Source: Bacteroidota bacterium (GTDB lineage: Bacteria; Bacteroidota; Bacteroidia; Chitinophagales; Chitinophagaceae). Taken from it: a stretch of DNA of 64,000 nucleotides. Below, one piece after another: positions 45,720-62,092 of the stretch. Under the pieces are notes generated by a model. It was given only the letters and a program-made list of their open reading frames with translations. It was not told the origin of the DNA and ran no database searches. Made by a program: the position numbers and the translations under genes. The stretch spans positions 1,596 to 65,595 of the forward strand of contig JABDFW010000008.1 in the NCBI GenBank assembly GCA_013286305.1, written 5' to 3'. The stretch's first letter is position 1, and every line of letters starts with the position of its first letter.

Positions 45720-47084
45720 TCAGCCCCGGCCGATCAACCACTCTTTCAACGATTCAAAATTTGCATCCACTAAAATACTTTTCTTTTCCCTGGCAGCAAG
45801 GTATTGTACGCTTTCCGGGAAAGGGATTTTGGTTCCGGTTGCCTGCTCTACTACTTCCGGGAATTTAACGGGATGAGCTGTTTCAAGAAAAATGCCCTTA
45901 CCATTCGGATGGGTTTTCAAATACTCACTTAAGGCATAGTATCCCACTGCGCCATGGGGGTCAAGCATATAGCCGCATTTTGTATATACTTCTTTTATTG
46001 TTTGAGCGGTAGTTGCATCGTCAACACTATAGCTGCTTAACATTGATTTGAGGTTACCGGTGTTTTGGTCAAACATCTCCATGATACGGACAAAATTGCT
46101 GGGGTTGCCCACATCCATTGCATTTGAAATGGTTGCCACCGCTGGTTTCGGAGTATAATTGCCACTTTCCAGAAACTGCGGCACTACATCATTTGCATTG
46201 CAGGCTGCAATAAAATGTTGCACCGGCAAACCTGATCTATACGCTAACATACCTGCACAAATATTGCCGAAGTTGCCACTCGGTACTGATATAACAGGCG
46301 GCTGCCCGTCAGCCCATTGCTGGTATGCGAAGAAATAATATAACTGCTGCGGCAACCAGCGTGCCACATTGATAGAGTTGGCAGAAGTAAGCTGTAATTT
46401 TTGACTGAGATCGTTATCCATGAAAGCCTGCTTTACCATAGCCTGGCAATCATCAAAGGTTCCGGTTACTTCCAGTGCGGCAATGTTTTGCCCAAGGGTG
46501 GTTAACTGAAGTTCCTGTATAGGGCTTACCTTACCCGAGGGATATAATATCACAACATCAACCCCTTCCACACCGAGAAAACCATTGGCAACTGCACCGC
46601 CCGTATCGCCGGAAGTTGCTACAAGCACTGTTGTATGATGGTTGCTGTTGCGGTTAAAATAACCAAGACAACGGCTCATAAATCTTGCGCCCACATCTTT
46701 AAATGCTAAAGTAGGGCCGTGAAACAGTTCAAGCGAATAAACAGCATCATTTAGTTTAACCAATGGAAACTCAAAGTTGATCGTTTCACTGATGATATGC
46801 TGCAATACATTTCCAGGGATGCTATCACCCACGTAAGGCTGCATAACTGTAACGCCTATTTCTTCTTTTGAATAGTCCCCGATATTCTCAATAAAACCTT
46901 TCGGTAACAAAGGAATAAGCTGAGGGAAATATAAACCTTTATCAGGCGCCTGCCCCTTTACCGTGGCTTCTGCGAATGTTACCGCCGGGGATTGATGGTT
47001 GAGAGAATAGTAAGCCCCTACTCGTGCCCCCGCCCCCTGAAGGGGGGAAAGCAAAAACCGTTTATTAAAATTTATACTTACCAT
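45720..47084 (-). CDS. thrC: Threonine synthase
   Basis: The conserved N-terminus YYSLNHQSPAVTFAEATVKGQAPDKGLYFP and the PLP Lys region (HGPTLAFKDVG) are present. The annotated ATG puts a GC-rich repeat copy (SPLQGAGARVG) into the N-terminus, so the true start is uncertain. Confidence 0.92.
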   Translation of the reverse strand: MVSINFNKRFLLSPLQGAGARVGAYYSLNHQSPAVTFAEATVKGQAPDKGLYFPQLIPLLPKGFIENIGDYSKEEIGVTVMQPYVGDSIPGNVLQHIISETINFEFPLVKLNDAVYSLELFHGPTLAFKDVGARFMSRCLGYFNRNSNHHTTVLVATSGDTGGAVANGFLGVEGVDVVILYPSGKVSPIQELQLTTLGQNIAALEVTGTFDDCQAMVKQAFMDNDLSQKLQLTSANSINVARWLPQQLYYFFAYQQWADGQPPVISVPSGNFGNICAGMLAYRSGLPVQHFIAACNANDVVPQFLESGNYTPKPAVATISNAMDVGNPSNFVRIMEMFDQNTGNLKSMLSSYSVDDATTAQTIKEVYTKCGYMLDPHGAVGYYALSEYLKTHPNGKGIFLETAHPVKFPEVVEQATGTKIPFPESVQYLAAREKKSILVDANFESLKEWLIGRG

Positions 47085-47133: not shown

Positions 47134-48147
47134 TCACTCCCCTTTAGGCCCGCCCGTGCCGGTACGGACGGGGGCAGGGGGTACAACCTTCACGCCTTCC
47201 ATATTTATTGTTGTTACATGCGTTTGATACGCCACTCCTATTCTTTCATATACTTCTTTCATTACGACTTCAACAACCCTTGCCGTTTCCGCATCCCTAC
47301 TCAGCATAAAAATAGAAGGACCGGAACCTGAGATGCCACCACCCAATGCGCCTGCTTCTTTACAATTTTTCTTTACCTCGTCAAAACCGGGGATGAGGAT
47401 GCTTCGAATAGGTTCTATAATAACATCTTCAAGCGAGCGGCCAATAAGATCATAATCGCCTTTTATAAAACCTGCTACAAGGCCCGCAATATTGCCCCAT
47501 TGCTTAATAGCATCTTTTAATAATACCTGCTGTTTAAGTATTTGCCTCGCGTCAGAGGTACGCACTTCTATCTGCGGGTGAACAACGGTTACATGCAGCG
47601 GCGGCGCATCAATTTGCACTATATCCAGCGGGTGAATAGAACGAATTAATGTGACACCACCGTAGATACAGGGTGCAATATTATCGGCGTGCTTAACCCC
47701 GCTGGCAACCTTTTCGCCAAACATTGCAAAGCGCACAAGGTCTTCCTTACTAAAACGGTTACCAAGTAAATGATTTGCTGCAACAACTGAACCTGCGGCG
47801 CTTGCGGCACTTGAACCAATACCGCTGCCCGGCTTGATGTGTTTTTTGCTGTATAATGTAAAGCCTTTTACGTCGGGGGTTTCCTCAAGCAGGGCAAGCA
47901 AGGCAGCACCGCTGACATTTTTTTCTGCCACGGTAGGCAAATCGAACTCGTCCTGGTTGATGATGTGCACGCCCGGCTCATCACTTAACTGCAAAGTGAT
48001 CTCATCATTCGGGCCGTTCAGTGCAAAGCCGAGTATATCAAACCCGCAGACAACGTTTGCAACGGTCGCGGGAGAGAGAATGGAGATGCCCCCTACCCCC
48101 GTCCGTACCGGCACGGGCGGGCCTAAAGGGGGGTTGTGTAACTGCAT
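47134..48147 (-). CDS. thrB: Homoserine kinase (candidate start at the internal ATG 48147; the ORF is open up to 48561)
   Basis: GHMP kinase motifs (SPATVANVVCGFDILGFAL, KPGSGIGSSAASAAG). The only ATG between the DUF559 part and the kinase core gives MQLHNPPLGPPVPVRTGVGGISILSPATV. Confidence 0.85.
   Translation of the reverse strand: MQLHNPPLGPPVPVRTGVGGISILSPATVANVVCGFDILGFALNGPNDEITLQLSDEPGVHIINQDEFDLPTVAEKNVSGAALLALLEETPDVKGFTLYSKKHIKPGSGIGSSAASAAGSVVAANHLLGNRFSKEDLVRFAMFGEKVASGVKHADNIAPCIYGGVTLIRSIHPLDIVQIDAPPLHVTVVHPQIEVRTSDARQILKQQVLLKDAIKQWGNIAGLVAGFIKGDYDLIGRSLEDVIIEPIRSILIPGFDEVKKNCKEAGALGGGISGSGPSIFMLSRDAETARVVEVVMKEVYERIGVAYQTHVTTINMEGVKVVPPAPVRTGTGGPKGE
47139..47181. repeat. GC-rich hairpin repeat, long form, at the thrB 3' end
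   Basis: CCCCTTTAGGCCCGCCCGTGCCGGTACGGACGGGGGCAGGGGG is the reverse complement (42/43) of the copy at 48089-48133. It is translated as the thrB C-terminal tail PPAPVRTGTGGPKGE. Confidence 0.85.
48089..48133. repeat. GC-rich hairpin repeat, long form, between the DUF559 and thrB portions
   Basis: CCCCCTACCCCCGTCCGTACCGGCACGGGCGGGCCTAAAGGGGGG is the inverted partner of 47139-47181. It is translated in frame as PPLGPPVPVRTGVGG. Confidence 0.85.
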
Positions 48148-48561
48148 AAGTTTCTTTTGAATAGTTGAAAGAACAGTTTCCAATTTTCCTATTATTTCTT
48201 CATTTTTAAATCGAATAACAGTTAGACCGAAATCCCGCAAATCATCTTCACGTTGTATATCATTGCTTTTTACATCTTCACGTTCGTGAATATTCCCGTC
48301 AATTTCGATTACCAATTTAAGTTTGTGACAGTAAAAATCCGCAACATATAAAGAAATCGGATGTTGTCTTCTAAATTTGAATCCCCAATCATTCGTCTTT
48401 AAATAATTCCATATCAATTCTTCTGCAAAAGTCATCCTGTTTCTTAATTGTTCTGCTTTTTTAAATATCAGAGGATGCGCTCCATAATGCATATCCCAAT
48501 TCTTTTGGGAATTATCTTCGCCAGGATGATATTGAACTATATTATCGAAATTTAATCTCAC
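48148..48561 (-). CDS. DUF559 (Vsr-like/PD-(D/E)XK) endonuclease-domain ORF without its own stop codon, reading in frame into thrB
   Basis: MRLNFDNIVQYHPGEDNSQKNWDMHYGAHPLIFKKAEQLRNRMTFAEELIWNYLK...FKFRRQHPISLYVADFYCHKLKLVIEIDGNIHE...DFGLTVIRFKNEEI matches the DUF559 pattern (FRRQ..., DF.C..., IE.DG..H, RF.N.E.). Confidence 0.8.
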
Positions 48562-48594: not shown

Positions 48595-48702
48595 CTCTCC
48601 TCTCCCTTTAGGGTTGGGGCTTTGGCTTTTCTCTCCTCTCCCTTTAGGGTTGGGGCTTTGGCTTTTCTCCCTTCTCCCTTTAGGGCCGGGGCTTCGGCTT
48701 TT
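48595..48702. repeat. Three tandem 36-bp GC-rich repeat units abutting the thrA stop codon
   Basis: CTCTCCTCTCCCTTTAGGGTTGGGGCTTTGGCTTTT appears twice exactly (48595-48630, 48631-48666), followed by the diverged third copy CTCCCTTCTCCCTTTAGGGCCGGGGCTTCGGCTTTT (48667-48702). Confidence 0.9.
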
Positions 48703-51190
48703 ATACCGTTGCCACCCTTATTATATCTGCAAATACACCGCTTGCTGTAACATCTGCACCCGCGCCCGCTCCCTTTACCACCAGTGGCTGTTCAGGATAA
48801 CGCTGTGTGTAAAAGAGCACGATATTATCCTTACCATAAAGATGATAAAAATCGCTGTTTGCCGGAACATGCTGCAACCCAACCTGTGCTTTACCATCTG
48901 CATAACTGGCAACAAATTTAAGCTTACAATTTTCCGCACCGGCAGACTTATATAGCGCTTTAAAATGATCTTCGTGCTTTGCCATTTCTTTATAAAAATC
49001 GGCTACATCACCTTCAAAGCAACTGGCAGGCAAAAAACTATTGTTGGCAATATCATTCATTTCAATCTTTTCACCGGCCTCACGCGCGAGTATCATTATT
49101 TTACGCATTACATCGGTGCCGCCAAGATCGAGGCGCGGGTCTGGTTCTGTGTAACCTTCATCCTGGGCTTGTTTTACAACTTCTGCAAAAGGCCTGGTGC
49201 CATCATAATTATTAAAAACAAAATTAAGCGTGCCGGATAAAACGGCTTGTATCTTATTTACCTTATCACCACTTCTTCTAAGATCATTTAAAGTACCTAT
49301 TACAGGTAACCCTGCCCCAACATTTGTTTCAAACAGGAAGAGTGCATTGTACTCATTTGCCAGCGCCTTTAAATGGTTATAGTTTTGGTAAGAAGATGAG
49401 GCAGCTATTTTATTGCACGCCACTACTGAAACAGCTTTTGACAATAACCTGTCATATACAGTAGCAACTTCTGCGTTGGCTGTTACATCTACAAAAACTG
49501 AGTTACGCAGGTTTTTATTTATCACCGTTTCAACAAATTCGTCAAGGTTATTGTCCTGTGCATTTAGCAACAGTTCCTTCCAGTTGGCAAGATCTATCGC
49601 ATTACCATTACCAACAAACAACATTTTTTTGCTGTTAGATATGCCGGTTACCCGCACCTGCAGGTTAAGGTGTTCCAATAAAAATTGCTGTTGCTGTTTT
49701 AGCTGCCCGAGCAATTTGCTGCCCACATTGCCTGCGCCTACAATAAATATATTTAGCTGTTTATACGCTGTTTCAAAAAATGCTTCGTGCAAAACGTTTA
49801 CACCTTTCTTTACATCGTTTGCAGAGATAACAGCAGAGATATTTCTTTCAGATGATCCCTGTGCTATAGCCCGCACATTAATGCCATTTCTTCCCAAAGC
49901 ATCAAACATTCTTCCACTTATACCCGGGTGGCTTTTCATTTTATCACCAACAAGCGCAATGATGGAAAGGCCCTGTTCTATTTTTAAAGGCTCTACCCGG
50001 CCTTGCGCTATTTCTATTTCAAATGTTTTGTCAACTGATTCTGTTGCCCGTGCAACATCGGCGCTATTTACGCCTACGCAAATAGAATGCTCTGAGGAAC
50101 TTTGTGTTATCAGTATTACATTAATGTTTTCATGCGCCAATGCTTCAAATAATCTTTTTGAAAAGCCCGGGATACCTACCATACCGCTACCCTCAAGGCT
50201 TAGCAATGCAATGTTATTGATACTGGATATGCCCGTGATGATACCTGAGCCCCCATCCCCCCGAACTGAATTCGGGGCAGGCTCTAAAGGAGTGTGAAGT
50301 ATAATGTTTTCACCCATTACCGTACCGGCTTCATTTGGCGCAAATGTGTTTTTTATCCAGGTGGGTATCTGTTTTCGCATTACCGGCTGAATGGTTGGGG
50401 GATAAATCACTTTAGCGCCAAAATGCGATAATTCCATTGCCTCCTGGTAAGAAATTTGGCTAATGGTTTTTGCGTTGGGTACCCAGCGCGGGTCTGCTGT
50501 CATCATACCTGTAACATCTGTCCATATTTCAAGGCACGATGCATTTACAGCCGCCGCAAAAATAGCAGCCGTATAATCAGAGCCGCCCCGGCCCAACGTG
50601 GTTATGTGGCCATGATCATCACTGGCGATAAAACCGGGGGCCAAAAAAATACCTTTTCCGGATGACGTTATCCTGTAAGAAATAAGATCGTTGGTAATAC
50701 TGAAATTAACAGCGGCAAATCCGTAATGGCTGTTGGTTTTTATAACAGCCCTTGAATCAATCCAATCGTGATCCACACCGGCAGACAGCATATAAGCTGA
50801 AATAATTTTAGACGACAGCAATTCCCCAAAACTTACAATGCGGTCTATAATGCGGGACGACAGTTCTTCCAGGTAAAATATGCTGTTGCATATTTCTTCC
50901 AGTTCGTTGCAGTGTTTTTTTATCATGCTTAAACAACTGCTTTGGTGTGTTACCGGCAATAAGGCCCTGGCGGTATCAAGATGCTTTTTTTCTAATTGCT
51001 GCAATACTTCTTTATATACTTCATCATTTTTCTCTGCTAAACTGCCGGCTTTAAGCAGTTGGTCTGTTACGCCGCCTAAAGCAGATACAACAACTACACT
51101 GGGTTCAGTATTGGTTTTAATTATACTAACTACCTTTTGAATATTTTCAGCATTTGCTACCGAAGAACCGCCAAATTTTAAAACTTTCAT
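48701..51190 (-). CDS. thrA: Bifunctional aspartokinase / homoserine dehydrogenase
   Basis: 829 aa: N-terminal MKVLKFGGSSVANAENI, aspartokinase, ACT domains, and homoserine dehydrogenase (FIVGAGNVGSKLL... through the C-terminus). Confidence 0.95.
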   Translation of the reverse strand: MKVLKFGGSSVANAENIQKVVSIIKTNTEPSVVVVSALGGVTDQLLKAGSLAEKNDEVYKEVLQQLEKKHLDTARALLPVTHQSSCLSMIKKHCNELEEICNSIFYLEELSSRIIDRIVSFGELLSSKIISAYMLSAGVDHDWIDSRAVIKTNSHYGFAAVNFSITNDLISYRITSSGKGIFLAPGFIASDDHGHITTLGRGGSDYTAAIFAAAVNASCLEIWTDVTGMMTADPRWVPNAKTISQISYQEAMELSHFGAKVIYPPTIQPVMRKQIPTWIKNTFAPNEAGTVMGENIILHTPLEPAPNSVRGDGGSGIITGISSINNIALLSLEGSGMVGIPGFSKRLFEALAHENINVILITQSSSEHSICVGVNSADVARATESVDKTFEIEIAQGRVEPLKIEQGLSIIALVGDKMKSHPGISGRMFDALGRNGINVRAIAQGSSERNISAVISANDVKKGVNVLHEAFFETAYKQLNIFIVGAGNVGSKLLGQLKQQQQFLLEHLNLQVRVTGISNSKKMLFVGNGNAIDLANWKELLLNAQDNNLDEFVETVINKNLRNSVFVDVTANAEVATVYDRLLSKAVSVVACNKIAASSSYQNYNHLKALANEYNALFLFETNVGAGLPVIGTLNDLRRSGDKVNKIQAVLSGTLNFVFNNYDGTRPFAEVVKQAQDEGYTEPDPRLDLGGTDVMRKIMILAREAGEKIEMNDIANNSFLPASCFEGDVADFYKEMAKHEDHFKALYKSAGAENCKLKFVASYADGKAQVGLQHVPANSDFYHLYGKDNIVLFYTQRYPEQPLVVKGAGAGADVTASGVFADIIRVATV
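50247..50294. repeat. GC-rich hairpin repeat inserted in frame inside thrA
   Basis: GAGCCCCCATCCCCCCGAACTGAATTCGGGGCAGGCTCTAAAGGAGTG is translated (minus strand) as HTPLEPAPNSVRGDGGSG, in the linker before the ACT region (GISSINNIALLSLEG). Confidence 0.7.
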
Positions 51191-51346
51191 AGTATGCTTT
51201 TCCTTAGAGGAAATATTTATATAATAATGTATGGGTTACTAACTTTTGTTTCTCCTGGTATCTTTAGGAATGGGAATAAAATATTCTTTTTTTGTTTTCA
51301 CTCCTGAAAAAGGAGGCCAGGTGGCGATATGATACTGTTTAACCCT

Positions 51347-51430
51347 TTACAGGGTTGTTGTAATAGTAGTAGTGGCGGGTGTCCCGGGAGTAGAGGAAGA
51401 AGAAATGATATGTTGATATAAGCTTACCAT
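51347..51430 (-). promoter_or_regulatory. thrL: Candidate thr operon leader peptide (27 codons, Thr-rich)
   Basis: The minus-strand ORF MVSLYQHIISSSSTPGTPATTTITTTL-stop lies 156 nt upstream of the thrA ATG. Eight of 27 codons are Thr, including TTTITTT. The stop codon sits inside the AACCCT-gtaa-AGGGTT hairpin. Confidence 0.6.
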
Positions 51431-51508
51431 TTGTAACTGAACCCGAAGATACGTTAAGATACTTTATAACAAGTGTTAGTTTATTAAGAAATTTTTATTG
51501 CTACCTCA

Positions 51509-52765
51509 TTACACCAAATACCCAAACAACGTATCATCTTTATTTAGCTCCGTAAAGTCAATATTATACTGCCGCATTTTTTCAACCAGGTCGTCGTAAT
51601 CATGCCTTGATTGCAATTCTATCCCCACCAATGCAGGCCCTGATTCTTTATTTGTTTTTTGTATATACTCAAAACGGGTAATATCGTCTTTGGGGCCAAG
51701 CACAAGGTTTAAAAATTCCCGCAAGGCACCGGGCCGTTGTGCAAAGTTCACCAGGAAATAATGCTTCAATCCCTCATACTGCAGGGAACGCTCTTTTATT
51801 TCAGGCATACGGTCAATATCATTGTTGCTTCCGCTTACAATGCAAACCACTGTTTTACCTTTTATCAATTCTGCATAATCATCAAGCGCAGCGATAGATA
51901 ATGCGCCGGCAGGCTCAACCACTATTGCATCTTCATTGTATAATTTCAAAATGGTGGAACATACTTTCCCTTCGGGTACAAGGCGCACGTCGTCTAACAC
52001 TTCTTTGCAAATAGCAAATGTAATGTCACCTGTACGTTTTACTGCGGCACCATCAACAAACCTGTCTATACTATTCAATGTTACCGGGTAGCCCGCTTTG
52101 AATGCTTCCAGCATACTTGGAGCGCCTTCAGGTTCAAGCCCAATTATTTTTGTTGAAGAAGAAACGGTTTTAAAATAAGTGCCAACACCTGATGCCAGGC
52201 CACCGCCACCGATGGGTACAAATACGTAGTCAATGTTGGTTAAATCCTCAAGTATCTCTACGGCAACCGTTCCCTGCCCTTCAATGATCCGGTAATCATC
52301 AAATGGCGGAATAAAGGCCATGTTGTGTTCTTCCGTATATTTTTTTGCAGCAACAGCGCAATCATCAAAGGTGTCGCCAATCAATACTATTTCAATACTA
52401 TCTTCTCCAAACATCATAGTTTGCCTAACCTTTTGTTTGGGGGTAATAATAGGCATGAAAATAACGCCTTTAATACCCAGCTTCCTGCAACTATAGGCGA
52501 AGCCCTGGGCATGATTGCCCGCACTGGCGGTAGTTACGCCATTCTTCAATTTTTCTGGTGGCAATGTACTTATCATATTATAAGCGCCGCGTAATTTGTA
52601 GGAGCGTACAACCTGCAGGTCTTCCCTTTTCAAATAAATATTTGCGCTATACCTCCGTGAAAGATTATGATTAAGCTGAAGCGGTGTTCAGTTAACTATA
52701 TCCTTTAGACGGTTGTGTGCGGCTATAAAATCCAAATGATATGTTGTGTCGGTAATTTTATTCAT
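51509..52765 (-). CDS. ilvA: Threonine ammonia-lyase (biosynthetic threonine dehydratase) interrupted by an in-frame TGA at codon 26; possible pseudogene or sequencing error
   Basis: The ATG at 52765 gives [62 protein letters not shown]..., where TGA is the plus-strand TCA at 52688-52690. The ORF-track version (51509..52633, TTG start) lacks the conserved TPLQ N-terminus. Confidence 0.85.
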
Positions 52766-53657: not shown

Positions 53658-54362
53658 TCAATATTCTGCCAGCTTATCGATTGCCCTCTTATATAAATTT
53701 AAAAGATTAGGCACCCTTTCAACGGTCCAGGCATAAAAGGCATCATGCACAAGAATTAAGGTTATTTTCAAATTCTCTGGCCTACGGGATTCGTACGAAA
53801 GCAAAATTTTTCCGATTTCGGGTTCTAAGTTGGCAAAACGCGCCTGATTATCATAAATGTCTGTTAGCAGGCTATATGTACGAAGATCAATTTTAGCAAC
53901 AATATTATTTTGCTTGGCAGCCTGCCATGCTACGTCATTAATATCGTGCAACATAATGCCATGTGGTGGTGGTGTTATTGCTGATAAATTTATTGCCCCA
54001 TTGTTTAAGAATTTTTGAGCAATGGCAGGGTATTGTTCTGCGGAGTCTATTTTCTTAAATACTTCAAGGTGATAAGCATATTGCGACTTCACGGATTCGC
54101 TATTTGTAATCAATTCCTCCTTAAGCTGGTGTAATATTTCTCTTGTTTGCTGCTTTTCATGAAGGCTGTTAAAGAACTCTGTAAGTATCAATGCAAGCAA
54201 TACGCTGAATATAATAAGCGTGGATTCACCTACATATTCCTTCCAGTTGCGCACGGCTATCACCTCGGGCAATTCTTTCTTTTCTTTTTTCCCCAGGGCA
54301 ACCTGCAGTGCTTTTTCCGGCGGCTGTTGCGGCAATGATTCTTCCGGTAATGTTTCTTCCAT
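53658..54362 (-). CDS. Hypothetical single-pass membrane protein (234 aa)
   Basis: Acidic/Pro-rich N-terminus, TM STLIIFSVLLALILTEFF, and a ~150-aa C-terminal domain. No family recognised. It lies between ilvC and hicB. Confidence 0.55.
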   Translation of the reverse strand: MEETLPEESLPQQPPEKALQVALGKKEKKELPEVIAVRNWKEYVGESTLIIFSVLLALILTEFFNSLHEKQQTREILHQLKEELITNSESVKSQYAYHLEVFKKIDSAEQYPAIAQKFLNNGAINLSAITPPPHGIMLHDINDVAWQAAKQNNIVAKIDLRTYSLLTDIYDNQARFANLEPEIGKILLSYESRRPENLKITLILVHDAFYAWTVERVPNLLNLYKRAIDKLAEY

Positions 54363-55790: not shown

Positions 55791-56477
55791 TCATTTAATT
55801 GTATCAAGGTTCTGCTTAATAATATCTGTTATCAGTTCCAGCCGTTCCTGTTGAATTTCCTTTCTTGCGTCTATTACCTTATCAACAATTTCTTTCTCCG
55901 CTGTTTTGGGTGAGCCCGCATTAAATGGTGGTGACGGGTTATATTCCATCATCAACTGAATTTCCTTAGCTGCATTTTCGCCTGCCAATTCAGCAACTAC
56001 AAATAAACCAAAATCTATTCCGGCGGTTACACCTCCTCCTGTTATCCTGTTCCTGTCCATCACTACCCTTTCTTCCAACACCTCCACATCAAACAGGCTC
56101 AGCAGGCCTAACGACAGCCAATGTGTTGTGGCTTTATACCCATTCAACAAACCTGCTGCAGCCAACACTAAAGCGCCTGTGCAAACAGATGTAACATATT
56201 TTGCATGCACTGCCTGTTGCTGTAAATAATGCAACAACTTTTTATTTTGCATTGCGCCAAACACTCCTTTACCACCGGGAACAAATAATATATCAACCTG
56301 CGGCGAATCGTCAAATGTTATATCAGGTGTAAGTACCAGTCCTGCATCACTTGTGACCGGTGCTAAACTTTCAGCCACCAAAAGAATTTGTACACCTGGC
56401 AATCTACCAAATACATCATAAGGGCCCGTAAGGTCCAGTTGAGTTAATTCCGGAAAAATCACCATACCTATTGTCAT
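55791..56477 (-). CDS. DJ-1/PfpI family protein (class-I glutamine amidotransferase-like fold)
   Basis: Start MTIGMVIFPELTQLDLTGP at 56477, with a nucleophile-elbow Cys (VTSVCTGALVLA). Upstream codons in the ORF track are a translated GC-rich repeat. Confidence 0.85.
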   Translation of the reverse strand: MTIGMVIFPELTQLDLTGPYDVFGRLPGVQILLVAESLAPVTSDAGLVLTPDITFDDSPQVDILFVPGGKGVFGAMQNKKLLHYLQQQAVHAKYVTSVCTGALVLAAAGLLNGYKATTHWLSLGLLSLFDVEVLEERVVMDRNRITGGGVTAGIDFGLFVVAELAGENAAKEIQLMMEYNPSPPFNAGSPKTAEKEIVDKVIDARKEIQQERLELITDIIKQNLDTIK

Positions 56478-56485
56478 AGACCATG

Positions 56486-56529
56486 CCCCTATCCCCGTCC
56501 GGCCAGTCATCCGGGCGGGCCTAAAGGGG
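56486..56529. repeat. GC-rich hairpin repeat, long form (ilvN / DJ-1 junction)
   Basis: CCCCTATCCCCGTCCGGCCAGTCATCCGGGCGGGCCTAAAGGGG. Confidence 0.8.
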
Positions 56530-56598
56530 TATTTTAATTTATTACAACTGTTCTCAACTATCACAATCAGACGGAGACCGTCAGATCGTATCGAGAGT

Positions 56599-60951: not shown

Positions 60952-61365
60952 TCAACTTTTATTTATCAACTCGTATGATTGTTTCATCCATTTCTTTAAC
61001 TGTTCATCTATATCTTTCTCACCGTCAACCTTTACAATATGCACCACCCTGTGTTTGGATGTTTGTAAAAATTTTGCAACAGGCGGCACATCTTCCAGGT
61101 GATCTAAAAAAAACTCAATCTCCAGGTGGCTCTTCTTAACCTTTACTGCCAGGAAGGTACTTTTTGTTTTAAAAAAAATCACATCCGGCGCAACTGCTTC
61201 TTCCCTGTACCTGCCAAAAGTTTTGACTATTGCCTCTATTTCCTCAAATAATCCTTTCAATAATGGCGGCCGCTTTATAAAAAAGCTTTCCTTATCAACA
61301 AGCTTACATCCGTGTATTTGCTCAGCTTTTTTAAAGCTACGTCCGCATTTTGGGCATATCCACAT
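60952..61365 (-). CDS. Small Zn-ribbon plus DUF5655-like protein
   Basis: 137 aa: MWICPKCGRSFKKAEQIHGC, followed by a domain resembling DUF5655/DUF4287-type proteins. It starts 18 nt after the attenuator terminator. Confidence 0.6.
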   Translation of the reverse strand: MWICPKCGRSFKKAEQIHGCKLVDKESFFIKRPPLLKGLFEEIEAIVKTFGRYREEAVAPDVIFFKTKSTFLAVKVKKSHLEIEFFLDHLEDVPPVAKFLQTSKHRVVHIVKVDGEKDIDEQLKKWMKQSYELINKS

Positions 61366-61434: not shown

Positions 61435-61533
61435 CTAACTTATACCTCCATGCAGGGCAGGAATAATAATGACAACGACTACCACAACTATTGTGATATT
61501 GTTTACAATATTATTTATCCTGTTTCTAAGCAT
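61435..61533 (-). promoter_or_regulatory. ilvL: ilv operon leader peptide (32 codons, Val/Ile-rich)
   Basis: The minus-strand ORF is MLRNRINNIVNNITIVVVVVVIIIPALHGGIS-stop. It has a run of 6 Val and 3 Ile, plus more Ile and Val upstream, and is followed by a canonical terminator. Confidence 0.8.
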
Positions 61534-61586: not shown

Positions 61587-62092
61587 GACCACGATTTTGA
61601 CCTGATTTTTCTGATTGCCCTGACGGGCCTTTTACTTATAATCAGGCTAAGCCCCCGGCAACGGCTTATACTTTTTATTAAATAACCTTTTCCACTCAAG
61701 GCTGCCCGCACCAAAATTTATTAACATACCTACCTCAAAATTATAAGCCTCCAAATAATTAAGCCCCTGGTTGAGGTGGCTATTTTCTAACTTACTTAAA
61801 GCCTTTATTTCAACTGTTATTTTTCCTTCAACTAAAAAATCAACCCTTCGGTCACCAATTAATTTATCGCGATAATAGATTTGCACACTGGCTTCCTTTT
61901 TAAAATCAATCCCCATCAATTCAAACTCTATTGCCAAAGCTCTCTGACAAATAATTTCCTGGAAGCCATTACCCAATGCACCATGTACTGTCATGCATGC
62001 TTTAATTATTTTCTCCGTTATTTCACTATACTTGTACTCCATATTCAATAAGCGTTCAGGGCAATCAGAAAAATCAGGTCAAAATCGTGGTC
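61587..62092. mobile_element. 506-bp cassette: GxxExxY gene bounded by perfect 37-bp terminal inverted repeats
   Basis: GACCACGATTTTGACCTGATTTTTCTGATTGCCCTGA (61587-61623) is the exact reverse complement of TCAGGGCAATCAGAAAAATCAGGTCAAAATCGTGGTC (62056-62092). Confidence 0.7.
61647..62048 (-). CDS. GxxExxY family protein (PD-(D/E)XK nuclease-like)
   Basis: 133 aa: ...HGALGNGFQEIICQRALAIEFELMGIDF...RVDFLVEGKITVEIKAL... The G-x-x-E-x-x-(Y/C) and D...E.K pattern is typical of the GxxExxY family. Confidence 0.85.
   Translation of the reverse strand: MNMEYKYSEITEKIIKACMTVHGALGNGFQEIICQRALAIEFELMGIDFKKEASVQIYYRDKLIGDRRVDFLVEGKITVEIKALSKLENSHLNQGLNYLEAYNFEVGMLINFGAGSLEWKRLFNKKYKPLPGA

Follow-up and report, generated by a model that had tools for sequence, protein, structure and literature searches.

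A conserved threonine/isoleucine leader peptide gene upstream of thrA in Chitinophagaceae-like Bacteroidota, with no detectable intrinsic terminator in most members

The 64,000-nt stretch of DNA analysed here (hereafter the window; Bacteroidota bacterium, Chitinophagaceae, assembly GCA_013286305.1, contig JABDFW010000008.1) carries on its minus strand, in this order, the genes ilvB, ilvN, ilvC, ilvA, thrA, thrB and thrC, and the element in question is a short leader open reading frame (ORF) within the 318-nt gap between the end of ilvA at position 51509 and thrA. Judged from the comparison of homologous loci, this ORF is a real, selected Thr/Ile leader peptide gene, and it very probably forms the sensor of a functional attenuator of thrA-thrB-thrC that responds to charged tRNA-Thr and tRNA-Ile. 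The predicted sensor belongs to a conserved family of about 140 loci, in front of thrA, and by terminator scans the intrinsic terminator is missing in about 86% of its members. The sensor is ordinary; the expression platform is not. Since the sensor is conserved and yet nearly no member has a terminator hairpin, the amino-acid sensor must switch its genes by a route other than the usual terminator.

The first regulated gene, thrA (48701..51190; like all window coordinates below, on the minus strand), encodes a bifunctional aspartate kinase / homoserine dehydrogenase I (NCBIfam PRK09436, 1021 bits), and thrB (47134-48561) and thrC (45720-47084) were assigned by NCBIfam matches. The Thr-rich ORF that a first-pass annotation of the window had placed upstream of thrA is indeed present in the sequence (51347..51430); it comprises 27 codons and a UAA stop, with the translation MVSLYQHIISSSSTPGTPATTTITTTL. 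Its regulatory codon run, ACU ACU ACU AUU ACA ACA ACC (T T T I T T T), occupies 51353..51373 and is followed by a CUG (Leu) codon whose bases are part of the stem of a hairpin, P1.

Two sets of loci were compared with the window. The genome-based set holds the thrA loci of 80 species genomes, all Chitinophagaceae-like (ThrA identity 64-79%), to which five closer metagenomic relatives were joined (81-87%); the nearest named relatives are Filimonas, Danxiaibacter, Foetidibacter, Panacibacter and Parafilimonas (76-81%). The second set, an independent sample, consists of 80 metagenome loci collected around a ThrA just 55% identical to that of the window. Both sets overlap taxonomically, with mostly Chitinophagaceae-like soil and freshwater bacteria, and several loci stem from metagenome-assembled genomes in which errors are possible, as exemplified by the leader of locus L017 with its apparent 1-nt frame shift.

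Some 60 of the 80 genome loci carry a short ORF with a terminal Thr/Ile run 5' of thrA. The conserved Thr-codon run, which the first-pass annotation had proposed to seek by comparing thrA upstream regions, is clearly visible, as Thr makes up 61% and Ile 23% of the nine codons preceding the last sense codon across 68 leaders. Within the run the codons ACU, ACA, ACC, AUU and AUC swap freely while the identity as Thr or Ile is kept, and ACG accounts for 8% of the Thr codons in leaders versus 13% in thrA. The final sense codon in the 68 leaders is Leu or Arg, because its bases form part of the P1 stem, and the stop codon is UAA in 63, UAG in three and UGA in two of them. The ORF has a median length of 28 codons (68 loci), and lengths differ by whole codons.

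A covariance model spanning the end of the Thr/Ile run to a conserved GGGC (model R1) matched 65 of 86 sources in the genome-based set at E ≤ 1e-9, plus four more weakly, and 71 of 80 loci in the metagenome set. There was a single match per locus, invariably directly 5' of thrA, and no further strong match was found, be it elsewhere in the 64-kb window or across 723 kb of flanking sequence. Cultured species whose loci carry the motif include Niastella populi (L047), Hydrotalea flava (L034), Sediminibacterium roseum (L037), Limnovirga soli (L019) and Ilyomonas limi (L012). Forty-six leader loci have no ilvA upstream, so the leader accompanies thrA regardless of its neighbour. It is the combination of the conserved run, the restriction of R1 to thrA and the independence from the upstream gene that identifies the ORF as real and selected. 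In seven species (L039, L048, L052, L057, L070, L073 and L077) thrA begins 12-24 nt past the ilvA stop codon and is leaderless; in these species thrABC is presumably governed solely from further upstream, via the ilv operon.

The first-pass annotation had left the choice between an attenuator with a non-canonical output and a fortuitous ORF. The comparison of loci bears out the sensor and disposes of the fortuitous ORF, i.e. a non-coding RNA or DNA motif that merely reads as Thr/Ile codons. The run is rich in A, C and U, and in principle its conservation might be at the RNA level; a second conserved element of the ORF, box A1, is clearly not kept at the amino-acid level. However, 68 loci share an in-frame start and an open frame to a stop in the P1 loop although the stop codon itself varies, ORF lengths change in whole codons, Thr and Ile codons interchange while the residue persists as one or the other, and the element occurs solely in front of the threonine biosynthesis operon. 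Taken together, these observations leave the fortuitous ORF with next to no probability.

The leader RNA of the family contains two hairpins around the codon run (all structures reported here are thermodynamic predictions at 37 °C). Hairpin P1, AACCCU-GUAA-AGGGUU in the window (51341..51356), is built from the last sense codons in its 5' arm and holds the UAA (51349-51347) in its loop. The stop codon embedded in a hairpin was thus described correctly in the first-pass annotation, and the hairpin is moreover conserved and covarying. In an alignment of 97 sequences 88.8% of P1 cells were paired, versus 24-48% in slid controls, and 26 cells were altered on both sides versus 6.9 in shuffles, a value equalled by none of 500 shuffles. 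The stop codon lies inside the P1 loop in the leaders of the genome-based set, and 3' of the P1 3' arm in the metagenome members L086 and L093. P1 thereby displays a trait of classical attenuators, namely a hairpin of the 1:2 type with the regulatory codons in its 5' arm and the stop codon near or in the loop.

The second hairpin, P0, is located inside the ORF just 5' of the Thr run and ends at the first Thr codons. Across the family the P0 segment folds with a mean z of -2.0 versus dinucleotide shuffles (p = 1.7e-17; z-scores here and below were computed against shuffles and do not account for phylogeny), and its stems vary greatly by lineage (GUAGCU/AGCUAC, AACAG/CUGUU, GCAAUUG/CAAUUGC and others). 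In the window P0 is weak (GGG-ACA-CCC, 51377..51385; fold of -4.3 kcal/mol, z = -1.33). In many lineages an outer helix is additionally predicted, in which the start-codon region pairs with the first Thr/Ile codons, e.g. AAGGUGAU/AUCACCUC, AAGUGGUA/UACCACU and AAUAGUGCU/AGCACUAUU (overall mean z = -0.51, p = 2e-4). According to the fold model, the leader start codon would become inaccessible in such a helix as soon as the run is transcribed. A start-codon helix of 7-10 bp was observed in L086-L092, L105, L109, L118, L129, L141, L148 and L157, the leader start within AAGGUGAU, AAGUGGUA or AAUAGUGCU often being GUG; in the window the outer helix is weak or absent.

Beyond the Thr-rich ORF and its stop-codon hairpin, on which the first-pass annotation centred, the conserved core as read from the alignments includes P0, a pair of sequence boxes, A1 and A2, and a further hairpin, P2. 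Box A1 (CAUAUCA in the window, 51406..51412; CAUAUYA in the family) lies in the 5' half of the ORF, about 20 nt into it. A1-like boxes were counted in 49 of 58 leaders versus 17.9 expected from shuffles, and the box is kept as nucleotides, since neither its encoded residues nor even its reading frame is constant between loci. Box A2 (CAUAUCGCC in the window, 51323..51331; CAUAUYAYC in the family) is situated in a single-stranded, G-poor linker and begins 8-10 nt 3' of the P1 3' arm. Its AUA is invariant and the adjacent positions are at least 90% conserved in two alignments. The two boxes share the same C/U-rich 7-9-nt motif, at a median spacing of 84 nt (range 75-96 nt). P2 has the form G-GGC...GCU-G in most members, with an invariant base, covarying inner pairs (U-A, A-U, G-C, C-G), on average 4 bp and -3.1 kcal/mol. 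The conserved module P1 + A2 + P2 is absent from Rfam.

Several explanations of box A2 were considered and discarded. No covariation between A2 and P1 was observed, as A2 remains constant while P1 switches from GGGUUGU to GCGGAUU, and a pairing of A2 with the P1 loop, the P1 3' arm or A1 was rejected on account of A2 being unchanged across P1 variants. Likewise, A2 as a second reading frame or as part of a read-through extension was rejected because A2 does not keep a fixed frame with respect to the leader ORF. A T-box-like or tRNA-mimic reading of the P1 loop and A2 was also dismissed, as the generally recognized defining features of such elements do not fit. With regard to base composition, the leader contains 24.7% C and 12.1% G (C/G of about 2), versus 19.3% C and 23.0% G in thrA, and outside the P0 and P1 stems G makes up 3-9% of the leader; this composition is partly dictated by the Thr, Ile and Ser codons, and part of the region is base-paired.

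The absence of a canonical terminator before thrA, remarked on in the first-pass annotation, was confirmed in the window and extends to about 86% of members. No hairpin with a U-tract was detected between leader and thrA in the window, either with a terminator-finding tool or in strict and relaxed scans. The strict scan (hairpin ≤ -5 kcal/mol and at least 5 U in 8) returned a terminator-like site 3' of P1 in 8 of 58 leaders, and the relaxed scan a site in 7 of 58 versus 4.8 expected from shuffles; in the second set a terminator-like site was scored in 9 of 67. P1 itself, with a moderately U-rich stretch on its 3' side, was picked up in about 20 of 58 leaders in the strict scan. As a terminator it would have the wrong regulatory sign, because a ribosome stalled early leaves P1 free, so that starvation would raise termination, and this candidate was rejected.

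The known alternatives to a simple terminator fared no better. The P1 3' arm has no excess complementarity downstream relative to shuffles (mean z = +0.23, L163 excepted), and a classical 2:3 antiterminator was rejected as the duplex energies of this arm are not significant. Nor does the P2 3' arm show excess downstream complementarity (mean z = +0.11; 11% of members below -1.5); a switch in which P2 as antiterminator opposes a longer hairpin enclosing a downstream hairpin, P3, is real in a few clades, and does not extend to the whole family. Finally, a stalled ribosome was modelled with the partition function by forcing the run to be unpaired, alongside a control block. The accessibility of the thrA start, the region of which has a mean opening energy of 5.7 kcal/mol, was unmoved (-0.01 kcal/mol versus +0.01 kcal/mol for the control, p = 0.75), and translational unmasking of thrA was rejected, the modelling showing no effect.

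A conspicuous exception is L163 (690-900), a distant GC-rich metagenomic member, in which the same stop-in-loop hairpin is followed by a full classical attenuator. Here GACGGGCUGCG pairs with CGCAGCCCGUC in a perfect 2:3 helix of 11 bp, and the 3:4 terminator consists of CCCGUCG/CGACGGG and U7. This design ties P1 to the classical 1:2 hairpin and the family to premature transcription termination, and in evolutionary terms L163 may connect the canonical with the terminator-less form.

The window also offers an internal comparison in the form of an ilv leader in the same supercluster. Like the thr leader it consists of a leader ORF (MLRNRINNIVNNITIVVVVVVIIIPALHGGIS, 61435..61533) with a regulatory codon run (IVNNITIVVVVVVIII), in the same organism. 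Unlike the thr leader, it has a canonical terminator, a textbook hairpin and U-tract (AAACCCGCCUCC-ACAG-AGAGGCGGGUUUUUUAUU, about 61412-61378) in which the GC-rich hairpin AAACCCGCCUCC-ACAG-AGAGGCGGGUUUUUU precedes U6, and by reading of its sequence it is neither C-rich nor G-poor. The ilv leader matches no Rfam family at gathering score. Attenuators with intrinsic terminators consequently do occur in this organism, and the lack of one at thr is specific.

Transcription of the leader is likely to begin close to the ORF. A promoter-like region of the Bacteroidota type spans 51444..51479, with CTAAC at 51479-51475, TTG at 51472-51470, an 18-nt spacer and TATCTTCG at 51451-51444, which would put the predicted transcript start about 10-15 nt 5' of the leader AUG. 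The promoter consensus of Bacteroidota is TTTG/TAnnTTTG, and the corresponding TTG-N18-TAnnTTnG is located 10-25 nt 5' of the leader ORFs. TAnnTTnG was found in 38 of 58 homologous leaders versus 11% of random windows, its combination with TTG 15-23 nt upstream in 24 of 58 versus 3%, and CTAAC adjoining the -33 TTG in 23 of 58 loci versus 6%. CTAAC may be a transcription factor binding site or an extended promoter element. A similar string, ACTAACA..CATAAG, is present 5' of leaderless thrA in Parafilimonas-like genomes (L001, L002, L004, L007 and L009).

We tentatively favour a ribosome-mediated Thr/Ile attenuator with a factor-dependent output, the factor most likely being Rho, as the reading of these sequence features. 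Transcription would begin just 5' of the leader ORF, and RNA polymerase would pause after P0 or P1, the position of A2 8-14 nt past the P1 stem corresponding to the distance of a hairpin-stabilised pause. A first ribosome would load and, with ample Thr and Ile, reach the stop codon and depart. The leader could then fold into P0, P1 and P2 with both C-rich boxes single-stranded, the start codon becoming buried, in many lineages, within the outer helix. Rho, as the most likely termination factor, would load with A1 and A2 as a two-part site and stop the polymerase at the hairpin-stabilised pauses, before or early in thrA. Conversely, under a shortage of Thr or Ile the ribosome would stall on the run, melt P0 and P1, cover part of the loading region and bar the 5' to 3' movement of Rho, such that the polymerase gets to thrA, the translation of which would then protect the transcript. 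P1 would in this mechanism be the counterpart of the classical 1:2 hairpin, with neither a 2:3 antiterminator nor a 3:4 terminator. The fit to factor-dependent termination derives from the C-rich, G-poor leader, the twin boxes, L163 and the clades with weak terminators. It is conceivable, and is put forward here with reserve, that the family represents a new attenuator class in which the twin CAUAUYAYC boxes and the GGC...GCU hairpin recruit Rho or a Bacteroidota-specific factor, and in which the stalled ribosome masks this module and blocks the path of the factor.

A number of observations weigh against the Rho-dependent output. A Thr/Ile/Ser-rich ORF is G-poor through its codons, so the composition is weak evidence, and much of the C-rich RNA is paired in the folded leader, which disfavours Rho. 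Box A2 and the P2 base (GGC...GCU) are conserved more strictly than usual Rho loading sites, which may hint at a specific binding protein or at a signal that RNA polymerase recognizes. In addition, about 14% of members have terminator-like hairpins, and in L063, L146, L148, L153 and Sediminibacterium the P2 3' arm is able to pair beyond P3, with a U-rich tail after it; weak intrinsic termination may hence be wider in the family than the scans detect.

The latter possibility leads to a classical attenuator with a weak or cryptic terminator, in which P2 would act as antiterminator against a longer P3-enclosing hairpin and U-rich tract, aided by NusA or NusG. Several clades contain elements of this design: in L063, L146, L148, L153 and Sediminibacterium (L027, L029, L032 and L051) GCUGA...UCAGC surrounds P3, with UUACUUAUUU or a similar sequence on its 3' side, L086-L088 carry GGU...ACC and UUUU around P3, L163 has the complete canonical design, and a UUUAUUUAY tract recurs 40-60 nt past A2. 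However, across the family the P2 3' arm matches downstream sequence no better than it matches shuffled sequence (mean z = +0.11), the relaxed scan exceeds expectation little (7 of 58 versus 4.8), and the window itself has no such hairpin and U-tract. Furthermore, the P2 5' arm has no competitor, and there is therefore no route from ribosome position to P2 formation. We consider a terminator of this kind unlikely as the output of the family. The strict conservation invites a different explanation, in which A1, A2 and the P2 base are the site of a dedicated trans factor or of an RNase cleavage that sets elongation or stability, the ORF modulating access. The identity of the A1 and A2 motifs over 7-9 nt, their conservation as nucleotides, the fairly constant spacing of 75-96 nt, the invariant AUA of A2, the invariant GGC...GCU base of P2 with its covarying inner pairs, and the lack of a detected RNA partner for either box all agree with a dedicated factor. 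Yet no candidate protein gene is linked to the motif, which is found solely at thrA with variable neighbours, and the conserved Thr/Ile run and the stop-in-loop geometry make translation central rather than accessory, which renders this explanation doubtful at best.

Even less compatible with the data is an erm-type translational attenuation, where a hairpin P4 would mask the thrA start and a stall would free the P1 3' arm to pair with the P4 5' arm. A pyrimidine/purine hairpin is in fact present 5-20 nt 5' of the thrA AUG in the window and many relatives, and in the window, L005, L006, L014 and L015 the P1 3' arm finds its best downstream partner 25-48 nt 5' of the AUG. Still, the opening energy of the thrA start is unchanged with the run occupied (in the window opening even becomes 1.6 kcal/mol harder), the complementarity between P1 and downstream sequence is not significant, members with an AAUCCGC/GCGGAUU P1 lack a P4 to match it, and from many members P4 is missing altogether. 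An erm-type switch is accordingly regarded as highly improbable.

Among known systems, the thr leader corresponds in function to the attenuator thrL of enterobacteria such as E. coli. The resemblance to the enterobacterial thr leader noted in the first-pass annotation stands as far as the Thr/Ile run 5' of thrA is concerned, and does not extend to membership of the corresponding Rfam family: RF00506 had no match in the window at gathering score and none at E ≤ 10 in 51100-51600, nor any at E ≤ 1 in ten other family members. Rfam membership was rejected altogether, as no family matches the thr leader in the window or in the ten other members. The thr leader shares with thrL a short leader ORF with a mixed Thr/Ile run directly 5' of thrA-thrB-thrC, a hairpin between the regulatory codons and the stretch 3' of the ORF, comparable to 1:2, and presumably the stall-on logic. 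Unlike thrL, it has no detectable 2:3 antiterminator and no GC-rich terminator with U-tract, and it possesses P0, A1, A2 and P2 as extra conserved elements that thrL lacks.

Closer parallels to the proposed output exist among Rho-dependent systems. Stalled ribosomes on upstream ORFs (uORFs) mask Rho loading sites in tnaC, speFL and cruR (PMC12360218). Similar to the thr leader, E. coli tnaC-tnaAB and speFL-speF and Bordetella cruR-bfrG combine a small uORF with the lack of an intrinsic terminator (PMC12360218); in these systems the stalled ribosome shields a C-rich Rho loading site in or near the ORF, as would by analogy be the case for the thr leader, and in cruR the site is located inside the ORF, as is proposed here. 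They differ in that a small molecule or metal is sensed via the nascent peptide with a stall at the stop codon, whereas the putative stall of the thr leader would be caused by tRNA shortage at a run 5' of the stop, and none of the three controls an amino-acid biosynthesis operon of Bacteroidota. The Salmonella leaders of mgtA (mgtL) and corA (corL) are comparable in that the speed of translation through certain leader codons decides on Rho termination (PMC12360218), but they use alternative RNA conformations that hide or expose the loading site, and no such conformations were detected in the thr leader. Rho proteins of Bacteroidota have large N-terminal insertions that are thought to help in the recognition of loading sites (PMC12360218).

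Within the Bacteroidota, the Bacteroid-trp motif and flavobacterial leader-peptide candidates are likewise cis elements 5' of amino-acid biosynthesis genes, and differ from the thr leader in the amino acid and in the RNA. The Bacteroid-trp motif is followed by a terminator stem-loop; the thr leader is not. No description of this thr leader was found in the literature that was searched, the nearest being the Bacteroid-trp motif, listed as RF01692 (PMC2864571), and generic remarks on leader-peptide-like small ORFs in Bacteroides and Flavobacterium (PMC7366714; PMC9723704).

The region between P2 and thrA is variable. It often contains the hairpin P3, with a pyrimidine-rich 5' arm and a purine-rich 3' arm, and by reading of the alignment the UUUAUUUAY tract 40-60 nt 3' of A2. 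The window belongs to a minority with a "type B" form of P2 (the window, L031, L049, L055, L060 and L081-L085), laid out as GGC, a covarying hairpin of 5-7 bp (stems CUUCC/GGAAG, UCCCUU/AAGGGA, UGCCG/CGGCA and CUCU/AGAG), an A-rich tract and a U-rich tract. In the window these are GGC and CUCCU-UUUUC-AGGAG (51301..51318; hairpin 51315-51301), followed by the A-rich UGAAAACAAAAAAAGAA and the U-rich UAUUUUAUUCC (51273..51300), which were not scored as a terminator in the scans. GGAGUGAAA is able to pair with UUUAUUCC as an alternative to the CUCCU/AGGAG hairpin, and further lineage-specific pairing partners are CAUUCCU (51272-51266) and a second CCAGGAG (51258-51252), together spanning 51252..51272. 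In the minimum-free-energy fold of the window AGGAGUG:CAUUCCU is enclosed by CUCCU...AGGAG, and for the leader as a whole the gain in folding over shuffles is modest (z = -1.79). The CUCCU/AGGAG and CCAGG pairings described as competing in the first-pass annotation exist in the window but are restricted to a few close relatives (of the type of the window, L031 and L081-L085), and they are probably not the switch because nothing ties them to ribosome position. Immediately before thrA, P4 (UUUCCU-CUA-AGGAAA, 51199..51213; pyrimidine-rich 5' arm, purine-rich 3' arm) ends 9 nt 5' of the AUG, and P4-like hairpins of differing sequence are found in many but not all relatives. Consensus folding of the whole family with RNAalifold recovered merely 3 P1 pairs, as MAFFT failed to align the variable parts; for the Sediminibacterium clade it yielded P0, the outer helix, P1 and P2, and no switch.

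The surrounding genes show some irregularities. The called ThrA N-termini are longer by 4-14 residues in the closest relatives (L081, and likewise L082-L084). In L081 (1201-1290) a CCCC-UUCA-GGGG hairpin lies directly 5' of an in-frame GUG, and because this GUG matches the start position of thrA in the window, the annotated starts of the closest relatives may be too far upstream. The thrB ORF of the window comprises 475 residues; its N-terminal residues 34-138 match DUF559 (PF04480, a Vsr-like endonuclease; E = 1.9e-29), and the homoserine kinase follows in frame (residues 160-460). The same arrangement is found in the closest relative, L081, and is absent from L082-L085; the DUF559 part may be a small endonuclease gene that was inserted between thrA and thrB and is read as one ORF. 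Further upstream in the window, a 234-residue ORF with no family match (53658-54362) lies between ilvC and ilvA, and a DJ-1/PfpI-like ORF (55791-56564) between ilvN and ilvC. The leu-ilv cluster is in addition interrupted by an ORF for a DUF5655 protein (60952-61365), between the ilv terminator and ilvD, and by an ORF of the PD-(D/E)XK_3 nuclease family (61647-62048), directly upstream of the ilv leader.

Attenuation by leader peptides has been worked out in Proteobacteria, where to our knowledge an intrinsic terminator is always the final element. How Bacteroidota regulate their genes is poorly understood, and this phylum initiates translation without Shine-Dalgarno pairing and uses an unusual sigma factor. 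With its conserved sensor and missing output device, the thr leader provides a concrete case for the study of ribosome-to-polymerase signalling in Bacteroidota, and the P1/A2/P2 module could improve the annotation of thr operons in soil and freshwater members of the phylum. In a review table, masking systems are listed solely for small-molecule or metal sensors, and his as a case of combined intrinsic and Rho-dependent termination (PMC12360218). If Rho is involved, the thr leader would provide a case in which tRNA shortage at a run of codons controls the operon of an amino-acid biosynthesis pathway via a masked Rho loading site.

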